Sequence record: OR539219.1
Source: Escherichia phage vB-Eco-KMB39
DNA length: 64,000 nt
Reading direction: 5' to 3' (one strand)
Shown here: positions 17,259-39,095 of the stretch, piece after piece
Layout of the letters: every line of letters starts with the position of its first letter
Position numbering within the stretch: the first letter of the stretch is position 1
Made by a program: the position numbers and the translations under genes
Notes under the pieces: model-generated
The model's input: the letters and a program-made list of their open reading frames with translations, nothing else
Database searches by the model: none
Told to the model about the DNA's origin: nothing

Positions 17259-17286
17259 TTTGTGTTCCTCCGTAGTTGATAGTTGT

Positions 17287-17316
17287 ATAGTACCACAGAG
17301 GAACGGTCTTGTAAAC
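17287..17316 (-). promoter_or_regulatory. T4-type early promoter (-35 GTTTAC, -10 TACTAT); approximate
   Basis: Minus-strand GTTTAC-N18-TACTAT followed by conserved leader CAACTATCA, a module repeated at least four times in this window. Confidence 0.55.
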
Positions 17317-18691: not shown

Positions 18692-18725
18692 TTTATTCTC
18701 CAAATCCGTATCAGTTGATAGTTGT

Positions 18726-18755
18726 ATAGTACCATAAAGCTTTATGCTTGTAAAC
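18726..18755 (-). promoter_or_regulatory. T4-type early promoter (GTTTAC ... TACTAT); approximate
   Basis: Same conserved module as at 17287-17316. Confidence 0.55.
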
Positions 18756-18784
18756 CGTTTTGTGAAAAATTTTTGAAATAAAAA

Positions 18785-22711: not shown

Positions 22712-22739
22712 GATGTTCTCCTCTTTATCTGATAGTTGT

Positions 22740-22769
22740 ATAGTACCACAGCTCAAACGGAAAGTAAAC
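22740..22769 (-). promoter_or_regulatory. T4-type early promoter (GTTTAC ... TACTAT); approximate
   Basis: Conserved module GTTTAC-N18-GTACTATACAACTATCA. Confidence 0.55.
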
Positions 22770-22807
22770 CGGTAAAATGAAAAAAGTCTCCCGAAGGAGA
22801 CCTAATG

Positions 22808-29167: not shown

Positions 29168-29641
29168 TTATTTGAACGATTTAACGTACTGAATAGAACC
29201 TTTACTATTTACAAAGGCAATTTTACCATTTTTATTATACATGGTAGCAGTACGCTGATAGCCATAAGTTTGCTTACCAGATTGATAACCAACTAATGCA
29301 AAATTATCTTCACCCATTTTATTCTGTTTAGCGCGAATGCGTTCATGACCATGTGCCATAAGAACCTTAGCATCACCAGTTACAATGGATCGACGAGTTT
29401 TTTCATCTTCAACTGTATTAACAAAGTCGTCAAATGAATCAAATTTAGCATGAGATTTATTATACAGTTTTCCATCTACTGCATAATTATATCCCTGTAC
29501 ATCCATCTCAACTTCTGTACCATCATCCAATACAGCAGTAATTTTCTGTCCTTTTTTAAATTTCAAAAGATCAGTAAAAGATTCAGCAATAATTTGAGAA
29601 TTAATAGCTGCTTCAGTGATAAATTCTTGATATGTTTTCAT
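29168..29641 (-). CDS. Internal head protein (capsid-targeting-sequence family)
   Basis: N-terminus MKTYQEFITEA matches the T4 internal-protein targeting sequence with an ITE/A prohead-protease site; adjacent to e as ipIII is in T4. Confidence 0.6.
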   Translation of the reverse strand: MKTYQEFITEAAINSQIIAESFTDLLKFKKGQKITAVLDDGTEVEMDVQGYNYAVDGKLYNKSHAKFDSFDDFVNTVEDEKTRRSIVTGDAKVLMAHGHERIRAKQNKMGEDNFALVGYQSGKQTYGYQRTATMYNKNGKIAFVNSKGSIQYVKSFK

Positions 29642-33180: not shown

Positions 33181-33711
33181 TTATATCATGCTATTTAAGA
33201 GATGTAAACTATTTTTAATTTTACAAATTCGTTCAGCTTCTTCAACAGCGGCGGCGATAATGCTTTTAGCTATAGGAGTACTAATACTAGTAGCTTTTAC
33301 ACTTAACACGATTTCTTTATCTTTACCAGGCCAACCCCACGATTTTTCACTGTGAGTGCCTTTAATTACAGCAGACACCTCAAGTGAGCATCCATTATCA
33401 TATGTTTTTACATTGACAACCCAAGGTTCACTTTTCTCAATCGGTTTCTCAATCGGTTTATCCCAGTAAATATTAAGAATACGTGGGACATCAAATTTGG
33501 CAGGACAAATCTTAACCGTAAGACCTTCGCTTTCTAGCCAATTAATAAGAGGGCGTTCATACAGGCGACGATGTGGGCTTGGGATTCGACAAGCCTTATG
33601 TCCGTTGCTTGCGGCTTCACTAAGCTGTTCTAATACCTGCTTTTGCATTATTGATAAGATACCATCAAAAGATTTTTCGGAAGTTTCATTCAGTTCGGTA
33701 TAAAGAGACAT
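33181..33711 (-). CDS. Hypothetical protein
   Basis: 176-aa ORF. Confidence 0.5.
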   Translation of the reverse strand: MSLYTELNETSEKSFDGILSIMQKQVLEQLSEAASNGHKACRIPSPHRRLYERPLINWLESEGLTVKICPAKFDVPRILNIYWDKPIEKPIEKSEPWVVNVKTYDNGCSLEVSAVIKGTHSEKSWGWPGKDKEIVLSVKATSISTPIAKSIIAAAVEEAERICKIKNSLHLLNSMI

Positions 33712-33766
33712 AACAGTTTCCTCAAATTATAGGCTCATAATATCTCAATCATGAGCCTATGTAAAC

Positions 33767-34030
33767 TTATTTCATATTATTAAAATATTCTTCTGCGATT
33801 TCGTCGTTATCATGGTAAACTTTAGAAGACAGTTTAACATAACCTTCAGCAATGAACATGTTAATCACAACCTTTACAGTATACCACTGACCATCTTCAT
33901 TACCCATTACTGCGTAAGTTTCAAACATCGGATGATCAGGACCGATAACTTTAATATCATTCACTGTACGACCGAAATCTTCTGAAACGCATTTCATAAA
34001 GAAGTTGAACAGTTCGCCGTAATTATCCAT
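33767..34030 (-). CDS. Small hypothetical protein
   Basis: ATG 34028-34030 with GGAG SD downstream of early promoter. Confidence 0.5.
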   Translation of the reverse strand: MDNYGELFNFFMKCVSEDFGRTVNDIKVIGPDHPMFETYAVMGNEDGQWYTVKVVINMFIAEGYVKLSSKVYHDNDEIAEEYFNNMK

Positions 34031-34074
34031 TTCATTCTCCAAGTTGTTTTTCTGTATCAGTAGTTGATAGTTGT

Positions 34075-34104
34075 ATAGTACCATGGAAGAACGGGGATGT
34101 AAAC
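34075..34104 (-). promoter_or_regulatory. T4-type early promoter (GTTTAC ... TACTAT); approximate
   Basis: Conserved module as at 17287, 18726, 22740. Confidence 0.55.
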
Positions 34105-34241
34105 CGTTTTGTGAAAAAATTTTTAAAAAGTTTTAGGGAATTCTAGGGCAGGGATGGGCAATTAAAGGATAGGATAATATATTATAAAGGGTATAAACTA
34201 AATGATGCCTAGAGAGGTCCAGAAAGGCCTAGATATCAAAA

Positions 34242-34265
34242 AGCCCCAACCTTTCGGTCGGGGCT
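34242..34265 (-). terminator. Intrinsic terminator hairpin (copy A of a repeated hairpin); approximate
   Basis: AGCCCCGACC-GAAA-GGTTGGGGCT followed by U-run on minus strand, directly after stop of 34272-34745. Confidence 0.55.
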
Positions 34266-34271
34266 AAAATG

Positions 34272-34745
34272 TTATTTGATTTGTTTAGCAGACCAAATGC
34301 GGTCTTTGATGATTTTTTGGATGTCTTCAACATACTCAAGAGAGTGAGCATGTGGGTTATCTTTGAAACTATAAGCACGAGCTAGCTTTTGGCCTTCGGT
34401 TTTGATTACTAAAAGCTCTTTAAGGATAGCTTCATATTTGGAGATAATTCCTTTAACAATATTTTTCTCTTGTGCGACTTTAGGATCTGCTTTAGGAGCA
34501 GGTTTACCCGAAGCCTTTGCAAAAGCAGCGCCAGTAGCAACTAAACTTTTCCAGGCCATACTAACCGCATTTCCTGTAAATCCTTCTGCTTTCATGTCGC
34601 GAGCAAATTGGAATCGCGATTCGTCAGAAGCATCTTTATAAGAATATTTACCCGCTGCAATGGCTGCTTTTGCGACAGCTTGAATTTCGGTGCTAGATGC
34701 TTCATTTAACACCGCTTCATTTAAAAATTGAGTATATGATTTCAT
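34272..34745 (-). CDS. Internal-protein-like protein with capsid-targeting-type N-terminus
   Basis: From ATG 34743-34745 (SD AGGAAAT): MKSYTQFLNEA... resembles the CTS; Ala/Lys-rich; 157 aa. Confidence 0.55.
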   Translation of the reverse strand: MKSYTQFLNEAVLNEASSTEIQAVAKAAIAAGKYSYKDASDESRFQFARDMKAEGFTGNAVSMAWKSLVATGAAFAKASGKPAPKADPKVAQEKNIVKGIISKYEAILKELLVIKTEGQKLARAYSFKDNPHAHSLEYVEDIQKIIKDRIWSAKQIK

Positions 34746-34798
34746 CTTATTTCCTGTTTTAATTCGTGGATTTAATATACTAATATTTATACTAAAAA

Positions 34799-34822
34799 GC
34801 CCCAACCTTTCGGTCGGGGCTA
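34799..34822 (-). terminator. Intrinsic terminator hairpin (copy B, identical to 34242-34265); approximate
   Basis: Same 24-nt hairpin plus A-run on plus side; ends the tRNA/small RNA transcript. Confidence 0.55.
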
Positions 34823-34864
34823 AGCCTTGCGGCAACCTTGTCGGGGTTCCACCTGCTAAGGCAA

Positions 34865-35135
34865 GTGTTTGTACGAAACGCCGGGATTCGAACCCGGTTA
34901 TTAAGTAGTTGACGCTACTCAATATTTTTAAAAGGCCATATCTCGACCATATCCGAACGTTCCGTCAAAAACGCTACTCGGCTTATGGCAAAGATATTTC
35001 CTCGAATCGATAATTCGGTGCGCCGTTTCTGCTGTGATATAAGGGGACATTAACAAAACATAAAGATTTATTAATGCCAGTCCTTAAACAGGGAACATCA
35101 GTCCGACGACTTGCCGGTAGCGACCCGGCTTCTTG
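34865..35135 (-). ncRNA. Possible small stable RNA / tRNA-like region downstream of tRNA-Arg
   Basis: Non-coding, between tRNA-Arg and terminator; contains tRNA-like T-arm CCGGGTTCGAATCCCGG near 34884-34900 but no full cloverleaf was resolved. Confidence 0.25.
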
Positions 35136-35137
35136 TC

Positions 35138-35213
35138 TGGTCGAGGCAGTAGGGATCGAACCTACGACCCAGGACTTAGAAGGTCCTTGCTCTTCCTTCT
35201 GAGCTATGCCTCG
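35138..35213 (-). tRNA. tRNA-Arg (anticodon UCU)
   Basis: Manual cloverleaf: 7-bp acceptor CGAGGCA/TGCCTCG, anticodon loop CUUCUAA, T-arm GTAGG-TTCGATC-CCTAC, 3' CCA encoded. Confidence 0.8.
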
Positions 35214-35217
35214 TATT

Positions 35218-35292
35218 TGGCGGACGTGATAGGATTCGAACCTATAACCAATCGCTTAACAGGCGATCGCTCTGCCATTGAGCTACACATCC
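35218..35292 (-). tRNA. tRNA-Asn (anticodon GUU)
   Basis: Manual cloverleaf: anticodon stem ATCGC/GCGAT, loop CUGUUAA, T-loop TTCGAAT, CCA encoded. Confidence 0.7.
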
Positions 35293-35296
35293 AAAT

Positions 35297-35383
35297 TGGT
35301 GGGGAGTGGTGGAGTCGAACCACCCGAGTCGCAATGACAATGAATTTACAGTCCACACCGCTACCCCTACGGGATAACTCCCC
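35297..35383 (-). tRNA. tRNA-Tyr (anticodon GUA), long variable arm
   Basis: Acceptor GGGGAGT/ACTCCCC, anticodon loop CUGUAAA identical to bacterial tRNA-Tyr, long extra arm, T-arm GGTGG-TTCGACT-CCACC, CCA. Confidence 0.65.
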
Positions 35384-35392
35384 AAATTAATT

Positions 35393-35467
35393 TGGTGGCC
35401 CTGGGTGGAATTGAACCACCATCTGGCGATTATGAGTCGCTTGCTTGAACCTTCCAGCTACAGGGCC
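35393..35467 (-). tRNA. tRNA-Ile (anticodon CAU, presumably lysidine-modified; Met not excluded)
   Basis: Anticodon loop CUCAUAA; acceptor GGCCCTG/CAGGGCC; CCA encoded. Confidence 0.7.
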
Positions 35468-35468
35468 T

Positions 35469-35544
35469 TGGTGCTGATTGACGGAATCGAACCGCCGACA
35501 TCCTCATTACAAGTGAGGTGCTCTACCTACTGAGCTAAATCAGC
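35469..35544 (-). tRNA. tRNA-Thr (anticodon UGU)
   Basis: GCTGATTTAGCTCAGTAGGTAGAGCACCTCACTTGTAATGAGG...; anticodon loop CUUGUAA. Confidence 0.8.
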
Positions 35545-35549
35545 AAAAC

Positions 35550-35639
35550 TGGCGGAGGCGATAGGATTTGAACCTATGAGTCGCCGGAGCGACTGCCGGT
35601 TTTCAAGACCGGTGCATTCAACCACTCTGCCACGCCTCC
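35550..35639 (-). tRNA. tRNA-Ser (anticodon UGA), long variable arm
   Basis: Acceptor GGAGGCG/CGCCTCC, anticodon loop CUUGAAA, long extra arm, CCA. Confidence 0.8.
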
Positions 35640-35653
35640 AAATATTTATATAT

Positions 35654-36262
35654 TTATATATTGTTAATTTGATTTAGAATTCTTTTTGCTTGAGTATGAC
35701 TTACGCCAATATGCTTAGCATATTTAGATAATTCGCCGCGTTTAGAAAAATCATATAATTTAGAAATTTCTATTCTTCTTTTTCTTTCATCCGCAGAAAC
35801 TTTTGCTTCGTTTGCTTTTGCTATTTTACGTTTAGCTTCTTGAGAATGAGTTTTACCAGCAAAGCCATTCTTCATTAATCCATTTGAAGACCATCCTTTT
35901 AATTTTCCGTTAGAATGTGCCTTTTTAACACCCAATGAAATTAATTCGCGTTGCTGATCTGTCATAGGATAATTATTTATATGATCCCATCCACCTTCAC
36001 CTCCAAGTTTTAAATTATACACATCTGGTCTATTTAAAAACTCTTCTGTGACAATATTTTTCTCGGCTTCAAGCATAGATTCTTTATCATCAAAATACTC
36101 TAATATTTCTTTAGAAAAATTTTCTATACCATATTTATCTTGGGCTCTTTTTAATAATTTACCAGAACCCATATATCCATCATCTAAATTTTCGGTAGAA
36201 TGCACACCAATATAAATTTTATTATTAATTTTATTTGTTATTTTATAAAGATAAAAATGCAT
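35654..36262 (-). mobile_element. segB: GIY-YIG homing endonuclease SegB-like, within the tRNA cluster
   Basis: N-terminal GIY-YIG motif (FYLYKITNKINNKIYIGVHS); sits between two tRNA sub-clusters as T4 segB does; start taken at ATG 36260-36262 (SD AGGGA), track ORF extends to 36304. Confidence 0.8.
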
Positions 36263-36308
36263 ATCAGTCCCTAATAAAGAACTGAGCGTCTCACGACGAG
36301 TCATAAAT

Positions 36309-36382
<74 letters not shown>

Positions 36383-36387
36383 AAATT

Positions 36388-36474
36388 TGGTGCGAGAAGT
36401 GGGACTCGAACCCACAAGGAAATAATTCCGCAGCATTTTAAGTGCTGTGCCTTTACCAATTTGACCATTCTCGC
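36388..36474 (-). tRNA. tRNA-Leu (anticodon UAA)
   Basis: GCGAGAATGGTCAAATTGGTAAAGGCACAGCACTTAAAATGCTGCGG...GGGTTCGAGTCCCACTTCTCGCACCA; long variable arm. Confidence 0.9.
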
Positions 36475-36476
36475 GC

Positions 36477-36548
36477 TGGGAATAAAGGACTCGAACCTTT
36501 GCATCCTGGAATCAAAATCCAGTGCCTTACCAACTTGGCTAATTCCCA
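36477..36548 (-). tRNA. tRNA-Gln (anticodon UUG)
   Basis: TGGGAATTAGCCAAGTTGGTAAGGCACTGGATTTTGATTCCAG...GGTTCGAGTCCTTTATTCCCAGCCA. Confidence 0.85.
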
Positions 36549-36634
36549 ATTATTAACAAAGGCTCTTTAGCAAGAACCCTTGATGATAGAGGGTATTAAT
36601 CAGTGCGGTATGAGTTAATAATAACAAATAATTC

Positions 36635-37150
36635 TTAAAGCAAATTAATCATTTTAACGGTCGGCAAAACAATTTCTTCTTCAATATAAGCGAATTCGAC
36701 GCTTTCAACTACACGTAGGAAATCATAGTCATAGTATTCAGAAGCATGACCAAGAATATCAATGAGGCCTTCAGATATCTTATTACCATTCACAAAGAAT
36801 AAGTCAAATACACGTTCTTCGTCTTCTTCGGATTTATTACCAAGGTCAACTTCTATATCAAAGACCTTTTTAATGAATTCTGGATAAAGCTGGTCTGAGA
36901 ACAGTCCTTCAACCAAGTATTCATAAATAAAAAGCGATTGCTCGCTGAACAAGCCATTACCACAATAACGTTCAGCTTTAGTACTAGAATGTCTACTTTT
37001 AAACTTCTTTAAAAGATATTGAAATTGTAAGATTTCATGCTCTTCTACGCCAAACAGTGTTTTAGTTTTATAGTTGTCACCATCATTTTCCCATGTAGTT
37101 ACATCAATCACATAACCCTGCGGAATTGTAGTACCTAAACAAACATTCAT
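36635..37150 (-). CDS. Hypothetical protein
   Basis: 171-aa ORF. Confidence 0.5.
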   Translation of the reverse strand: MNVCLGTTIPQGYVIDVTTWENDGDNYKTKTLFGVEEHEILQFQYLLKKFKSRHSSTKAERYCGNGLFSEQSLFIYEYLVEGLFSDQLYPEFIKKVFDIEVDLGNKSEEDEERVFDLFFVNGNKISEGLIDILGHASEYYDYDFLRVVESVEFAYIEEEIVLPTVKMINLL

Positions 37151-38010: not shown

Positions 38011-38038
38011 TTTATTCTCCTCAGTAGTTGATAGGGTA

Positions 38039-38068
38039 ATAGTATCACAACTAAAACCCTATGTAAAC
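38039..38068 (-). promoter_or_regulatory. T4-type early promoter (GTTTAC ... TACTAT) with A/T-rich upstream element; approximate
   Basis: Module near-identical to the one at 38369-38398, including downstream ATGTAAACAACTTTGTGAAATTATTTTAAATC. Confidence 0.55.
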
Positions 38069-38080
38069 AACTTTGTGAAA

Positions 38081-38338
38081 TTATTTTAAATCTTCTAATC
38101 GTTTCTTCATCTTAGAACCATTTTTAGCAATTTCTCCTGCATCGGAGCATAACGCTAAAAGTGCTTTAACTTTAGTTTGGTCTCCTTTAAAAGACGAAGG
38201 ATCGACCGCAGCAGCAAGTTCTTTAATACGAGAGAAAAGACGCTCAGCTTCAGCTAAAGCCATTCCAAGCTTTACTTCCATACCGTGGGAAGATTCGGTG
38301 ATAGTAGTTTTTGTAGCAAACTCTTTGAAAGTTTTCAT
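38081..38338 (-). CDS. Internal head protein-like (CTS-bearing) at the T4 ipI locus position
   Basis: 85 aa, N-terminus MKTFKEFATKTTITE/S resembles the internal-protein targeting sequence; located just upstream of 57B. Confidence 0.55.
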   Translation of the reverse strand: MKTFKEFATKTTITESSHGMEVKLGMALAEAERLFSRIKELAAAVDPSSFKGDQTKVKALLALCSDAGEIAKNGSKMKKRLEDLK

Positions 38339-38368
38339 TTTATTTTCCTAATTAATTTTGATGAGGTA

Positions 38369-38398
38369 ATAGTATCACTACCTCATCAGCATGTAAAC
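38369..38398 (-). promoter_or_regulatory. T4-type early promoter; approximate
   Basis: GTTTAC-N18-TACTAT; -10 embedded in inverted repeat GATGAGGTA...TACCTCATC. Confidence 0.55.
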
Positions 38399-38410
38399 AA
38401 CTTTGTGAAA

Positions 38411-39095
<685 letters not shown>

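Follow-up and report, generated by a model that had tools for sequence, protein, structure and literature searches.

A hairpin-bounded gene with a capsid-targeting-type leader at the end of the tRNA operon of a T4-like phage

Between the e.8 and rnaC homologues of Escherichia phage vB-Eco-KMB39 (OR539219.1), of which we analysed a stretch of 64,000 nucleotides (the window), a single gene of 157 amino acids (aa) is bracketed by two copies of an identical hairpin sequence of 30 nucleotides (nt). The reading that we favour, with a probability of roughly 0.6, is that hairpins and gene form a self-contained late cassette for a head-packaged internal protein (IP), inserted at the terminator that ends the T4-type tRNA/rnaD/rnaC operon. 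Along the minus strand the cassette consists of the operon terminator (34823-34794), the promoter box TATAAATA, a Shine-Dalgarno sequence, the 157-aa gene and an identical second terminator (34267-34238). The architecture of the sequence, four locus states with junctions at hairpins, conservation of the leader motif, purifying selection and mosaic alleles are the observations on which this reading is built. The elements of the site and of its two conserved flanks are as follows:

33767..34030, minus strand: e.8 homologue, the left-hand conserved flank; early promoter at 34075-34103
34238..34267, minus strand: downstream repeat copy, predicted terminator of the ip-like gene; stem-loop core 34242-34265, then T5; fold -20.6 kcal/mol, z = -5.3
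34272..34745, minus strand: ip-like gene, 157 aa, phrog_2280; starts MKSYTQFLNEA; sole gene between the repeats
34750..34755, minus strand: Shine-Dalgarno AGGAAA, 4 nt upstream of the ATG; read from the sequence and kept in relatives
34784..34791, minus strand: T4-type late promoter box TATAAATA (predicted), 2 nt beyond the upstream hairpin's T-run, with 38 nt from the box to the ATG
34794..34823, minus strand: upstream repeat copy, terminator of the tRNA/rnaD/rnaC operon; the sole copy in T4
about 34872-35010, minus strand: rnaC homologue (stable RNA, species 1), T4 annotation transferred by BLAST and alignment
about 35017-35135, minus strand: rnaD homologue (stable RNA, species 2), annotation transferred in the same way

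The duplicated hairpin and the late promoter box

The exact 30-mer AAAAAGCCCCAACCTTTCGGTCGGGGCTAA occurs twice in the 64-kb window, at 34238-34267 and 34794-34823, and no third copy was found there with up to 3 mismatches allowed; 100 dinucleotide-preserving shuffles produced 0 chance matches. A repeat search extended the pair to 35 nt at 94% identity, in direct orientation and with a spacing of 556 bp. The surrounding 11 kb contained no other long direct repeat except the promoter-type repeats around the Ip5 gene, which are described below. A first-pass annotation made from the letters of this DNA had noted a repeat of ~30 bp on either side of one gene (34272-34745), and both copies were recovered as exact matches, the first of them starting 1 nt further to the right (34238 vs 34237).

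On the minus (coding) strand each copy forms a G+C-rich stem of 10 bp with a GAAA loop, followed by T5; the RNA reads AGCCCCGACC-GAAA-GGUUGGGGCU-UUUUU. One G-U pair in the stem of the minus-strand RNA corresponds to a C-A mismatch on the plus strand, and the structure was therefore assigned to the coding-strand RNA. The predicted fold energies of the two hairpins are -20.3 to -20.6 kcal/mol (z = -3.6 to -5.3), and a consensus terminator scan recovered both. The downstream copy starts 4 nt past the stop codon of the 157-aa gene, and the T4 hairpin lies ~50 nt past the mature 3′ end of rnaC. Across relatives the stem is preserved by one compensatory G-C/C-G swap (GCCCC...GGGGC vs GGCCC...GGGCC) or by wobble-compatible changes, with occasional changes in the loop, and the two copies inside one genome usually carry the same lineage-specific variant. 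In H117 and H121, independent genome annotations place two terminators at the locus. The assignment of each 30-bp copy, called a terminator hairpin in the first-pass annotation, as a predicted strong intrinsic (Rho-independent) terminator is supported by the stem-loop and T5 on the coding strand, by the terminator scan and by the compensatory changes in the stem. A ubiquitous terminator unlinked to variable cargo had been named in that annotation as a finding that would speak against it. This identity is ruled out by the restriction of the exact 30-mer to one locus: in the full-length T4-like contigs of IMG/VR it was found here only, in 1 or 2 copies per genome. Rfam, applied to 33500-37000, reported tRNAs alone and no family for the hairpins, rnaC or rnaD.

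The TATAAATA box at 34784-34791 qualifies by its sequence as the predicted T4 late promoter of the 157-aa gene. The composite of hairpin, T5, 2/3 nt, TATAAATA, leader segment, Shine-Dalgarno and ATG recurs upstream of Tequatrovirus and Dhakavirus/Mosigvirus-type homologues, despite divergence of the hairpin and leader sequences. A TATAAATA box also precedes the ATG of the lysozyme gene e in the window, at a distance of 26 nt. A promoter scan found no sigma70-like site in 34746-34793.

The capsid-targeting-type leader and the protein

The leader MKSYTQFLNE↓A keeps Y4 and F7 (targeting) as well as L8 and E10 (processing) of the capsid-targeting sequence (CTS) of IPIII. According to a review of Black's work, residues 4 and 7 of the CTS are the main determinants of targeting, and residues 8 and 10 those of processing (PMC9026906). 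Among homologues of the 157-aa protein, positions 3, 5, 6 and 9 of the leader vary while positions 4, 7, 8 and 10 stay. The leaders of named internal proteins and of two paralogues found at the same site in relatives read as follows (the arrow stands after position 10):

IPIII: MKTYQEFIAE↓A
Ip4: MKTYQEFITE↓A
Ip9: MKTYQEFISE↓A
Ip7: MKTFKEFINE↓A
187-aa paralogue: MKTYAEFLTE↓A
205-aa paralogue: MKTYNEFLNE↓S

Of 499 frames in the window that start with ATG and reach 50 aa or more, only 2 have the strict CTS motif, those of the 157-aa gene and of an Ip4 homologue. Residues L8-N9-E10↓A11 match a predicted site for the gp21 prohead protease, and L13-N14-E15↓A16 is a second candidate. The leader contains LNEA in tandem (FLNEAVLNEA, in residues 1-16, 34698-34745), with candidate cuts after E10 and E15; the second copy is missing from other alleles.

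The 157-aa open reading frame (ORF) is a real coding gene under purifying selection. The ratio of nonsynonymous to synonymous change (dN/dS) between alleles is ~0.16 in residues 12-78, the N-terminal domain, and ~0.06 in residues 79-157, and amino-acid change in the N-terminal domain is ~6-fold faster than in the C-terminal part (dN 0.22-0.28 vs 0.03-0.04). Three allele types of the N-terminal domain can be distinguished, two of which occur in both Tequatrovirus-like and Dhakavirus/Mosigvirus-type backgrounds. A longer, TTG-initiated ORF of 216 aa (34272-34922) was rejected as the gene: it crosses the hairpin into rnaC, and the homologues are all annotated at 474 nt.

The predicted mature protein is basic and of ~16 kDa, with an isoelectric point (pI) of 9.5; the pI of Ip4 is 9.1. 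The AlphaFold2 model (pLDDT 72) is all-helical and consists of an N-terminal helical domain (~residues 16-78), a PAPKADPK linker and a C-terminal helical hairpin. The family is narrow and counts 13 clusters at the 90% identity level and 11 representatives at the 50% level. It was found in 511 phage records, all T4-like, mostly Tequatrovirus with the addition of Mosigvirus and Dhakavirus; Klebsiella and Yersinia phages gave partial matches. When 1.84 billion representatives were searched exhaustively, 11 hits came back, namely the family itself and three large repetitive proteins; the latter have no coherent Pfam content and were treated as spurious.

Locus states, cassette exchange and competing explanations

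The window belongs to a Tequatrovirus (T4-like) genome, and the region of the locus is 96-97% identical to hundreds of such phages. The order on the minus strand is tRNA cluster (split by a GIY-YIG gene), tRNA-Arg, rnaD, rnaC, hairpin, 157-aa gene, hairpin, e.8, a gene replacing e.7, and e.6, so that the 157-aa gene lies where the tRNA operon ends, flanked by e.8 and rnaC. The e.8 and rnaC flanks are 95-100% identical among Tequatroviruses; on its right the variable site is bordered by the rnaC and rnaD homologues, whose conservation among relatives is 98-100%. T4 has a single copy of the hairpin, located between rnaC and e.8. In the alignment with the window it passes from the left flank through one hairpin directly into rnaC, and the difference is the gene plus one hairpin, 556 bp exactly. 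The empty sites of T4, T2, PST and RB10 all contain exactly one hairpin.

A synthetic query of 400 bp that represents the 'empty site' served to survey the locus in 50,697 phage records, rows being sampled at even ranking steps, and the counts rest on the 37 sampled records that matched both flanks. Nine of these were empty (T2, T4, RB10 and PST among them), 23 had an insert of ~556 bp (the cassette of the 157-aa gene), 2 an insert of 687 bp (the 187-aa paralogue alone) and 3 an insert of ~1240 bp (the 157-aa gene together with the 187-aa paralogue). The 157-aa gene was thus present in 26/37 records (~70%), in 3 of them alongside the paralogue; it is dispensable and variably present among close relatives. 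Extra BLAST 'places' found per genome in this survey were traced to a repeated early-promoter element of the left flank, not to the hairpin. At the level of sequence four states of the locus can be read:

State 1: hairpin A only; T4, PST
State 2: hairpin A - ip157 - hairpin A; window, RB32, slur07, EPIMRB01
State 3: hairpin B - ip187 - hairpin A; Killian
State 4: hairpin B - ip187 - hairpin A′ - ip157 - hairpin A; pSs-1, VIPECOOM01 and three IMG/VR contigs

All four states join at hairpins, the junction of the T4 empty site to within a few nucleotides. Dhakavirus/Mosigvirus-type relatives (L010 and APCEc01 among them) have the same layout with the hairpin variant GGCCCUUCC-GAAA-GGUUGGGCC, in most cases at both ends, and carry an ip154/157 allele, the CTS-bearing 205-aa paralogue and/or a DUF7338 membrane protein of 184 aa. 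Contig L008, from a Tequatrovirus, is mosaic: both flanks are 97-100% identical to the window, whereas the 5′ two-thirds of the gene are only 65-73% identical. On one side the mosaic ends close to the upstream hairpin and the promoter, on the other within the conserved linker and C-terminal region, and to judge from these alignments the exchanged unit is sometimes just the 5′ two-thirds of the 157-aa gene. The sequence comparison supports the hairpin-bounded gene as an exchangeable cassette.

The loops of some hairpins are 'flipped' between phages. The loop of hairpin B is CUAAAUG in pSs-1 (L003:2037-2066) and CAUUUAG in the homologous downstream (e.8-side) copy of L009, and the middle hairpin A of VIPECOOM01 (L004:2726-2755) has GACC-UUUC-GGUC in place of GACC-GAAA-GGUU. 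Flipped loops suggest template switching within hairpins or recombination at hairpin elements.

For the cassette as a whole we infer late transcription, packaging, cleavage, injection, an anti-defence role and a recombination mechanism. The 157-aa gene would be transcribed late in infection from its own promoter. Its first 10 residues, MKSYTQFLNE, would act as a CTS and carry the protein into the prohead core, and the gp21 prohead protease would cleave after Glu10 and/or Glu15. The ~16-kDa basic mature protein would be retained in the head and injected together with the DNA; by analogy with the T-even internal proteins tested so far it would most likely neutralise a DNA-targeting defence of the host, a type IV restriction enzyme being the leading guess. 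The duplicated hairpin would insulate both transcription units. Its 30 bp of homology would allow T4-type recombination to remove the cassette, with one hairpin left as in T4, and cassettes might be inserted or exchanged between co-infecting phages by the same homology.

Several points weigh against this reading. The 157-aa gene lies outside both described IP loci (trna.4-57B and e-vs.8), although this is a matter of location and not of functional definition. In T4, ipI is 2.7 kb beyond the hairpin, between trna.4 and 57B, so the site of the 157-aa gene is not the classical ipI locus; it is distinct also from the ipII/ipIII locus beside the lysozyme gene e. The literature on RB32ORF133c, the orthologue in phage RB32, and on Tequatrovirus virion proteomes yielded no proteomic or genetic report of packaging or injection. 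The TATAAATA box is not enriched in the window (15 found vs 10.8 expected), so that the promoter call rests on position and conservation. The public annotations sampled all read 'hypothetical protein', and PHROGs lists phrog_2280 as function unknown. No Pfam family was found for the protein; a profile search of the sequences of solved structures returned designer helical repeats only and no meaningful match; and Foldseek with the AlphaFold2 model found nothing in PDB (best E = 1) and only the protein's own family in BFVD. Function is consequently assigned by analogy alone. The site is not reserved for internal proteins, since in four contigs (L011, L012, L013 and L014) the hairpin-bounded position holds the 184-aa predicted membrane protein (DUF7338, phrog_2143), which has no capsid-targeting leader. 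Lastly, the hairpin indels mark where the joints are, not the mechanism behind them.

As an alternative, the hairpin might be duplicated for transcriptional insulation only, each unit needing its own terminator, with gains and losses of the gene brought about by other processes such as GIY-YIG-driven co-conversion or general recombination in the conserved flanks. A seg-like GIY-YIG gene does lie ~830 bp away in the tRNA cluster, flanks that are 95-100% identical could support homologous exchange of whole alleles, and one exchange breakpoint, that of L008, is inside the gene and away from the hairpin. We nevertheless consider this explanation unlikely: empty sites retain exactly one hairpin and the four states all join at hairpins; the sharing of lineage-specific variants by the copies within a genome is expected if these recombine or are regenerated by recombination; and there is a precedent in cassettes flanked by stem-loops and promoters, which recombine to give deletions and mini-circles (PMC2839356). 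That the hairpins mainly stabilise RNA 3′ ends, or signal the processing of the tRNA/rnaC precursor and of the ip mRNA, instead of acting as terminators or recombination linkers, appears very improbable. The ~50 nt between the mature rnaC end and the T4 hairpin do imply that the primary transcript is processed upstream of the hairpin, but a G+C-rich 10-bp stem with an immediate T5 is the canonical form of an intrinsic terminator, and the pattern of indels would be left unexplained.

A different objection concerns the product, which might be an ordinary, non-packaged late accessory protein whose leader resembles those of internal proteins through a shared 5′ segment kept as a recombination patch or translation-initiation region. 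Such a view would accord with the lack of any report of virion presence in the literature, with an unannotated family that has no sequence kinship to named IPs past the leader, and with the genes without a CTS that occupy the site in some relatives. On the other side, the leader keeps its four critical positions and varies at 3, 5, 6 and 9, which suggests selection on the peptide and not on the DNA; the 187-aa and 205-aa paralogues have the same peptide motif in a different nucleotide sequence; and the gene has a predicted late promoter and a basic product. The objection seems to us quite unlikely to be right.

With the internal-protein cassette retained as the preferred reading, the interpretation in the first-pass annotation is supported overall as far as computation reaches. 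Its capsid-targeting-like start is supported by the retention of Y4, F7, L8 and E10 and by the strict motif, confined among the 499 frames to this gene and Ip4. The comparative alignment across T4-like genomes that it proposed was carried out and gave a variable site, joints at hairpins and four locus states; the exchangeable cassette of that annotation agrees with the one-hairpin empty sites of T4, T2, PST and RB10 and with the other relatives, all joined at hairpins. One refinement concerns the place: the gene, of predicted IP type, occupies a variable site between e.8 and rnaC, which is not one of the two classical IP loci.

Neighbouring loci and known systems

Two further genes of internal-protein type are present in the window, at the classical positions:

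29168-29641, minus strand: Ip4 homologue, 157 aa; leader MKTYQEFITE↓A; phrog_3155 'internal virion protein'; Pfam DUF7412
38081-38338, minus strand: Ip5 homologue at the classical ipI locus; phrog_3499, labelled internal head/virion protein

The Ip4 homologue sits between vs.8 and e, which in T4 is the position of ipII/ipIII; the phage of the KMB39 window appears to be without ipII and ipIII and to have the Ip4 homologue in their place. The Ip5 gene is bracketed by a direct repeat of 69 nt with 84% identity (38028-38096 and 38358-38426), including an exact 32-mer (38061-38092 and 38391-38422). This repeat takes in the last codons (DLK*) of both 57B and Ip5 and holds a sigma70-like early promoter, TTTACA-N17-TACTAT, together with a stem-loop; it is an element of the type known as PeSL, a cassette of stem-loop and early promoter. 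Weaker copies of the element were seen upstream of e.8 (34064-34132) and upstream of the gene replacing e.7 (33726-33794). The early-promoter element from upstream of e.8 has more copies at 17269-17316, 18713-18778 and 22730-22771 (79-85% identity), probably repeats of PeSL or early-promoter type that are dispersed over the early region.

A seg-like homing endonuclease gene of the GIY-YIG/NUMOD3 type (35654-36304, minus strand) separates tRNA-Ser from tRNA-Gly in the tRNA cluster. Its insertion point differs from that of T4 segB, which is between tRNA-Arg and tRNA-Ile. The endonuclease could be a driver of co-conversion at the adjoining variable site.

The work of Mullaney and Black of 1996 is reportedly a reference for the internal proteins of T-even phages. 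The genes of these proteins have a common leader, are variable in presence and are bounded by repeats, as far as Repoila et al. 1994 is cited in later papers (PMC4122927, PMC12373910, PMC9026906). Ip1, Ip2 and Ip3 are inhibitors of GmrSD type IV enzymes, a different one in each case, and the T4 internal proteins are encoded in two loci (Silas et al. 2025, PMC12373910). Bas37_0260, a leader-bearing protein at the ipI locus of Bas37, is an inhibitor of McrBC (bioRxiv 10.1101/2025.11.20.689424), and IPIII is required on strain ECOR17 (PMC9391042). With the T-even internal proteins (IPI, IPII and IPIII of T4; Ip4-Ip9 etc. of T2, T6, RB and K3 phages) the 157-aa protein has in common that it is small, basic and non-essential, that it starts with a leader of ~10 residues of the form MK(T/S)(Y/F)xxF(I/L)xE↓A, that its presence is variable among close relatives and that direct repeats flank its gene. 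It differs from them by its position at a third site, e.8-rnaC, instead of the ipI or ipII/ipIII locus. There is also no common sequence family, the 157-aa protein belonging to phrog_2280 and the homologues in the window to phrog_3155 and phrog_3499.

An orthologue already on record is RB32ORF133c (GenBank DQ904452, ABI94957), which has the same position and 98% identity. In the GenBank record of RB32, from 2006, RB32ORF133c is described as 'flanked by 34 bp imperfect direct repeat', and Ip7/Ip9 as 'flanked by 43 bp direct repeat'. There the product is labelled hypothetical protein only, and the record connects it neither with internal proteins nor with terminators or a late promoter.

The best reading of these sequences is that the e.8-rnaC site is a third locus of internal-protein type, located at the terminator of the tRNA operon and with a composite of terminator and late promoter as its linker. 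A wider proposal, to which we give somewhat less than even odds, is that phrog_2280, found in more than 500 phage genome records, is a widespread but so far unrecognised family of T-even internal proteins that are injected and are encoded at a third IP locus. The fast-evolving N-terminal domain, of which at least three allele types are shared across genera, would give these proteins their specificity for different host defences, for example variants of type IV restriction, and the hairpin would be the late-gene counterpart of a PeSL, a portable recombination linker between co-infecting phages. The T-even internal proteins tested (Ip1, Ip2, Ip3 and Bas37_0260) are specific inhibitors of type IV restriction, and internal proteins help to set host range. 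A further leader-bearing family would offer ready candidates for anti-defence screens and, if the reading is true, would raise the known IP loci from two to three. The series of states at this locus (empty, one gene, the other gene, both) is a natural test case for regulatory stem-loops as recombination linkers, with a late promoter in place of an early one.

PeSLs are cassettes of stem-loop and early promoter that flank variable ORFs, and recombination between their copies leads to deletions and mini-circles (Arbiol et al. 2010, PMC2839356; Comeau et al. 2014, PMC4122927); T4 recombination needs less than 50 bp of homology (PMC2839356; PMC4122927). The site described here shares with PeSLs the combination of stem-loop terminator, promoter, Shine-Dalgarno and ATG, the flanking of variable ORFs in plastic regions, the indels between close relatives that map to the elements, and the transcriptional insulation of the cassette. 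A deletion product like those of PeSLs, the T4-type empty site with one hairpin, exists in nature. The site differs in that a late TATAAATA box accompanies its stem-loop where a PeSL has a sigma70-like early promoter, and on that point it falls outside the definition of a PeSL. The repeated unit is essentially the terminator alone (30-35 bp), and the contrast can be seen within the window itself, where the Ip5 gene is flanked by a true PeSL-type repeat. The type of arrangement is therefore already known, whereas the phrog_2280 family and the e.8-rnaC locus had not previously been labelled as internal protein.

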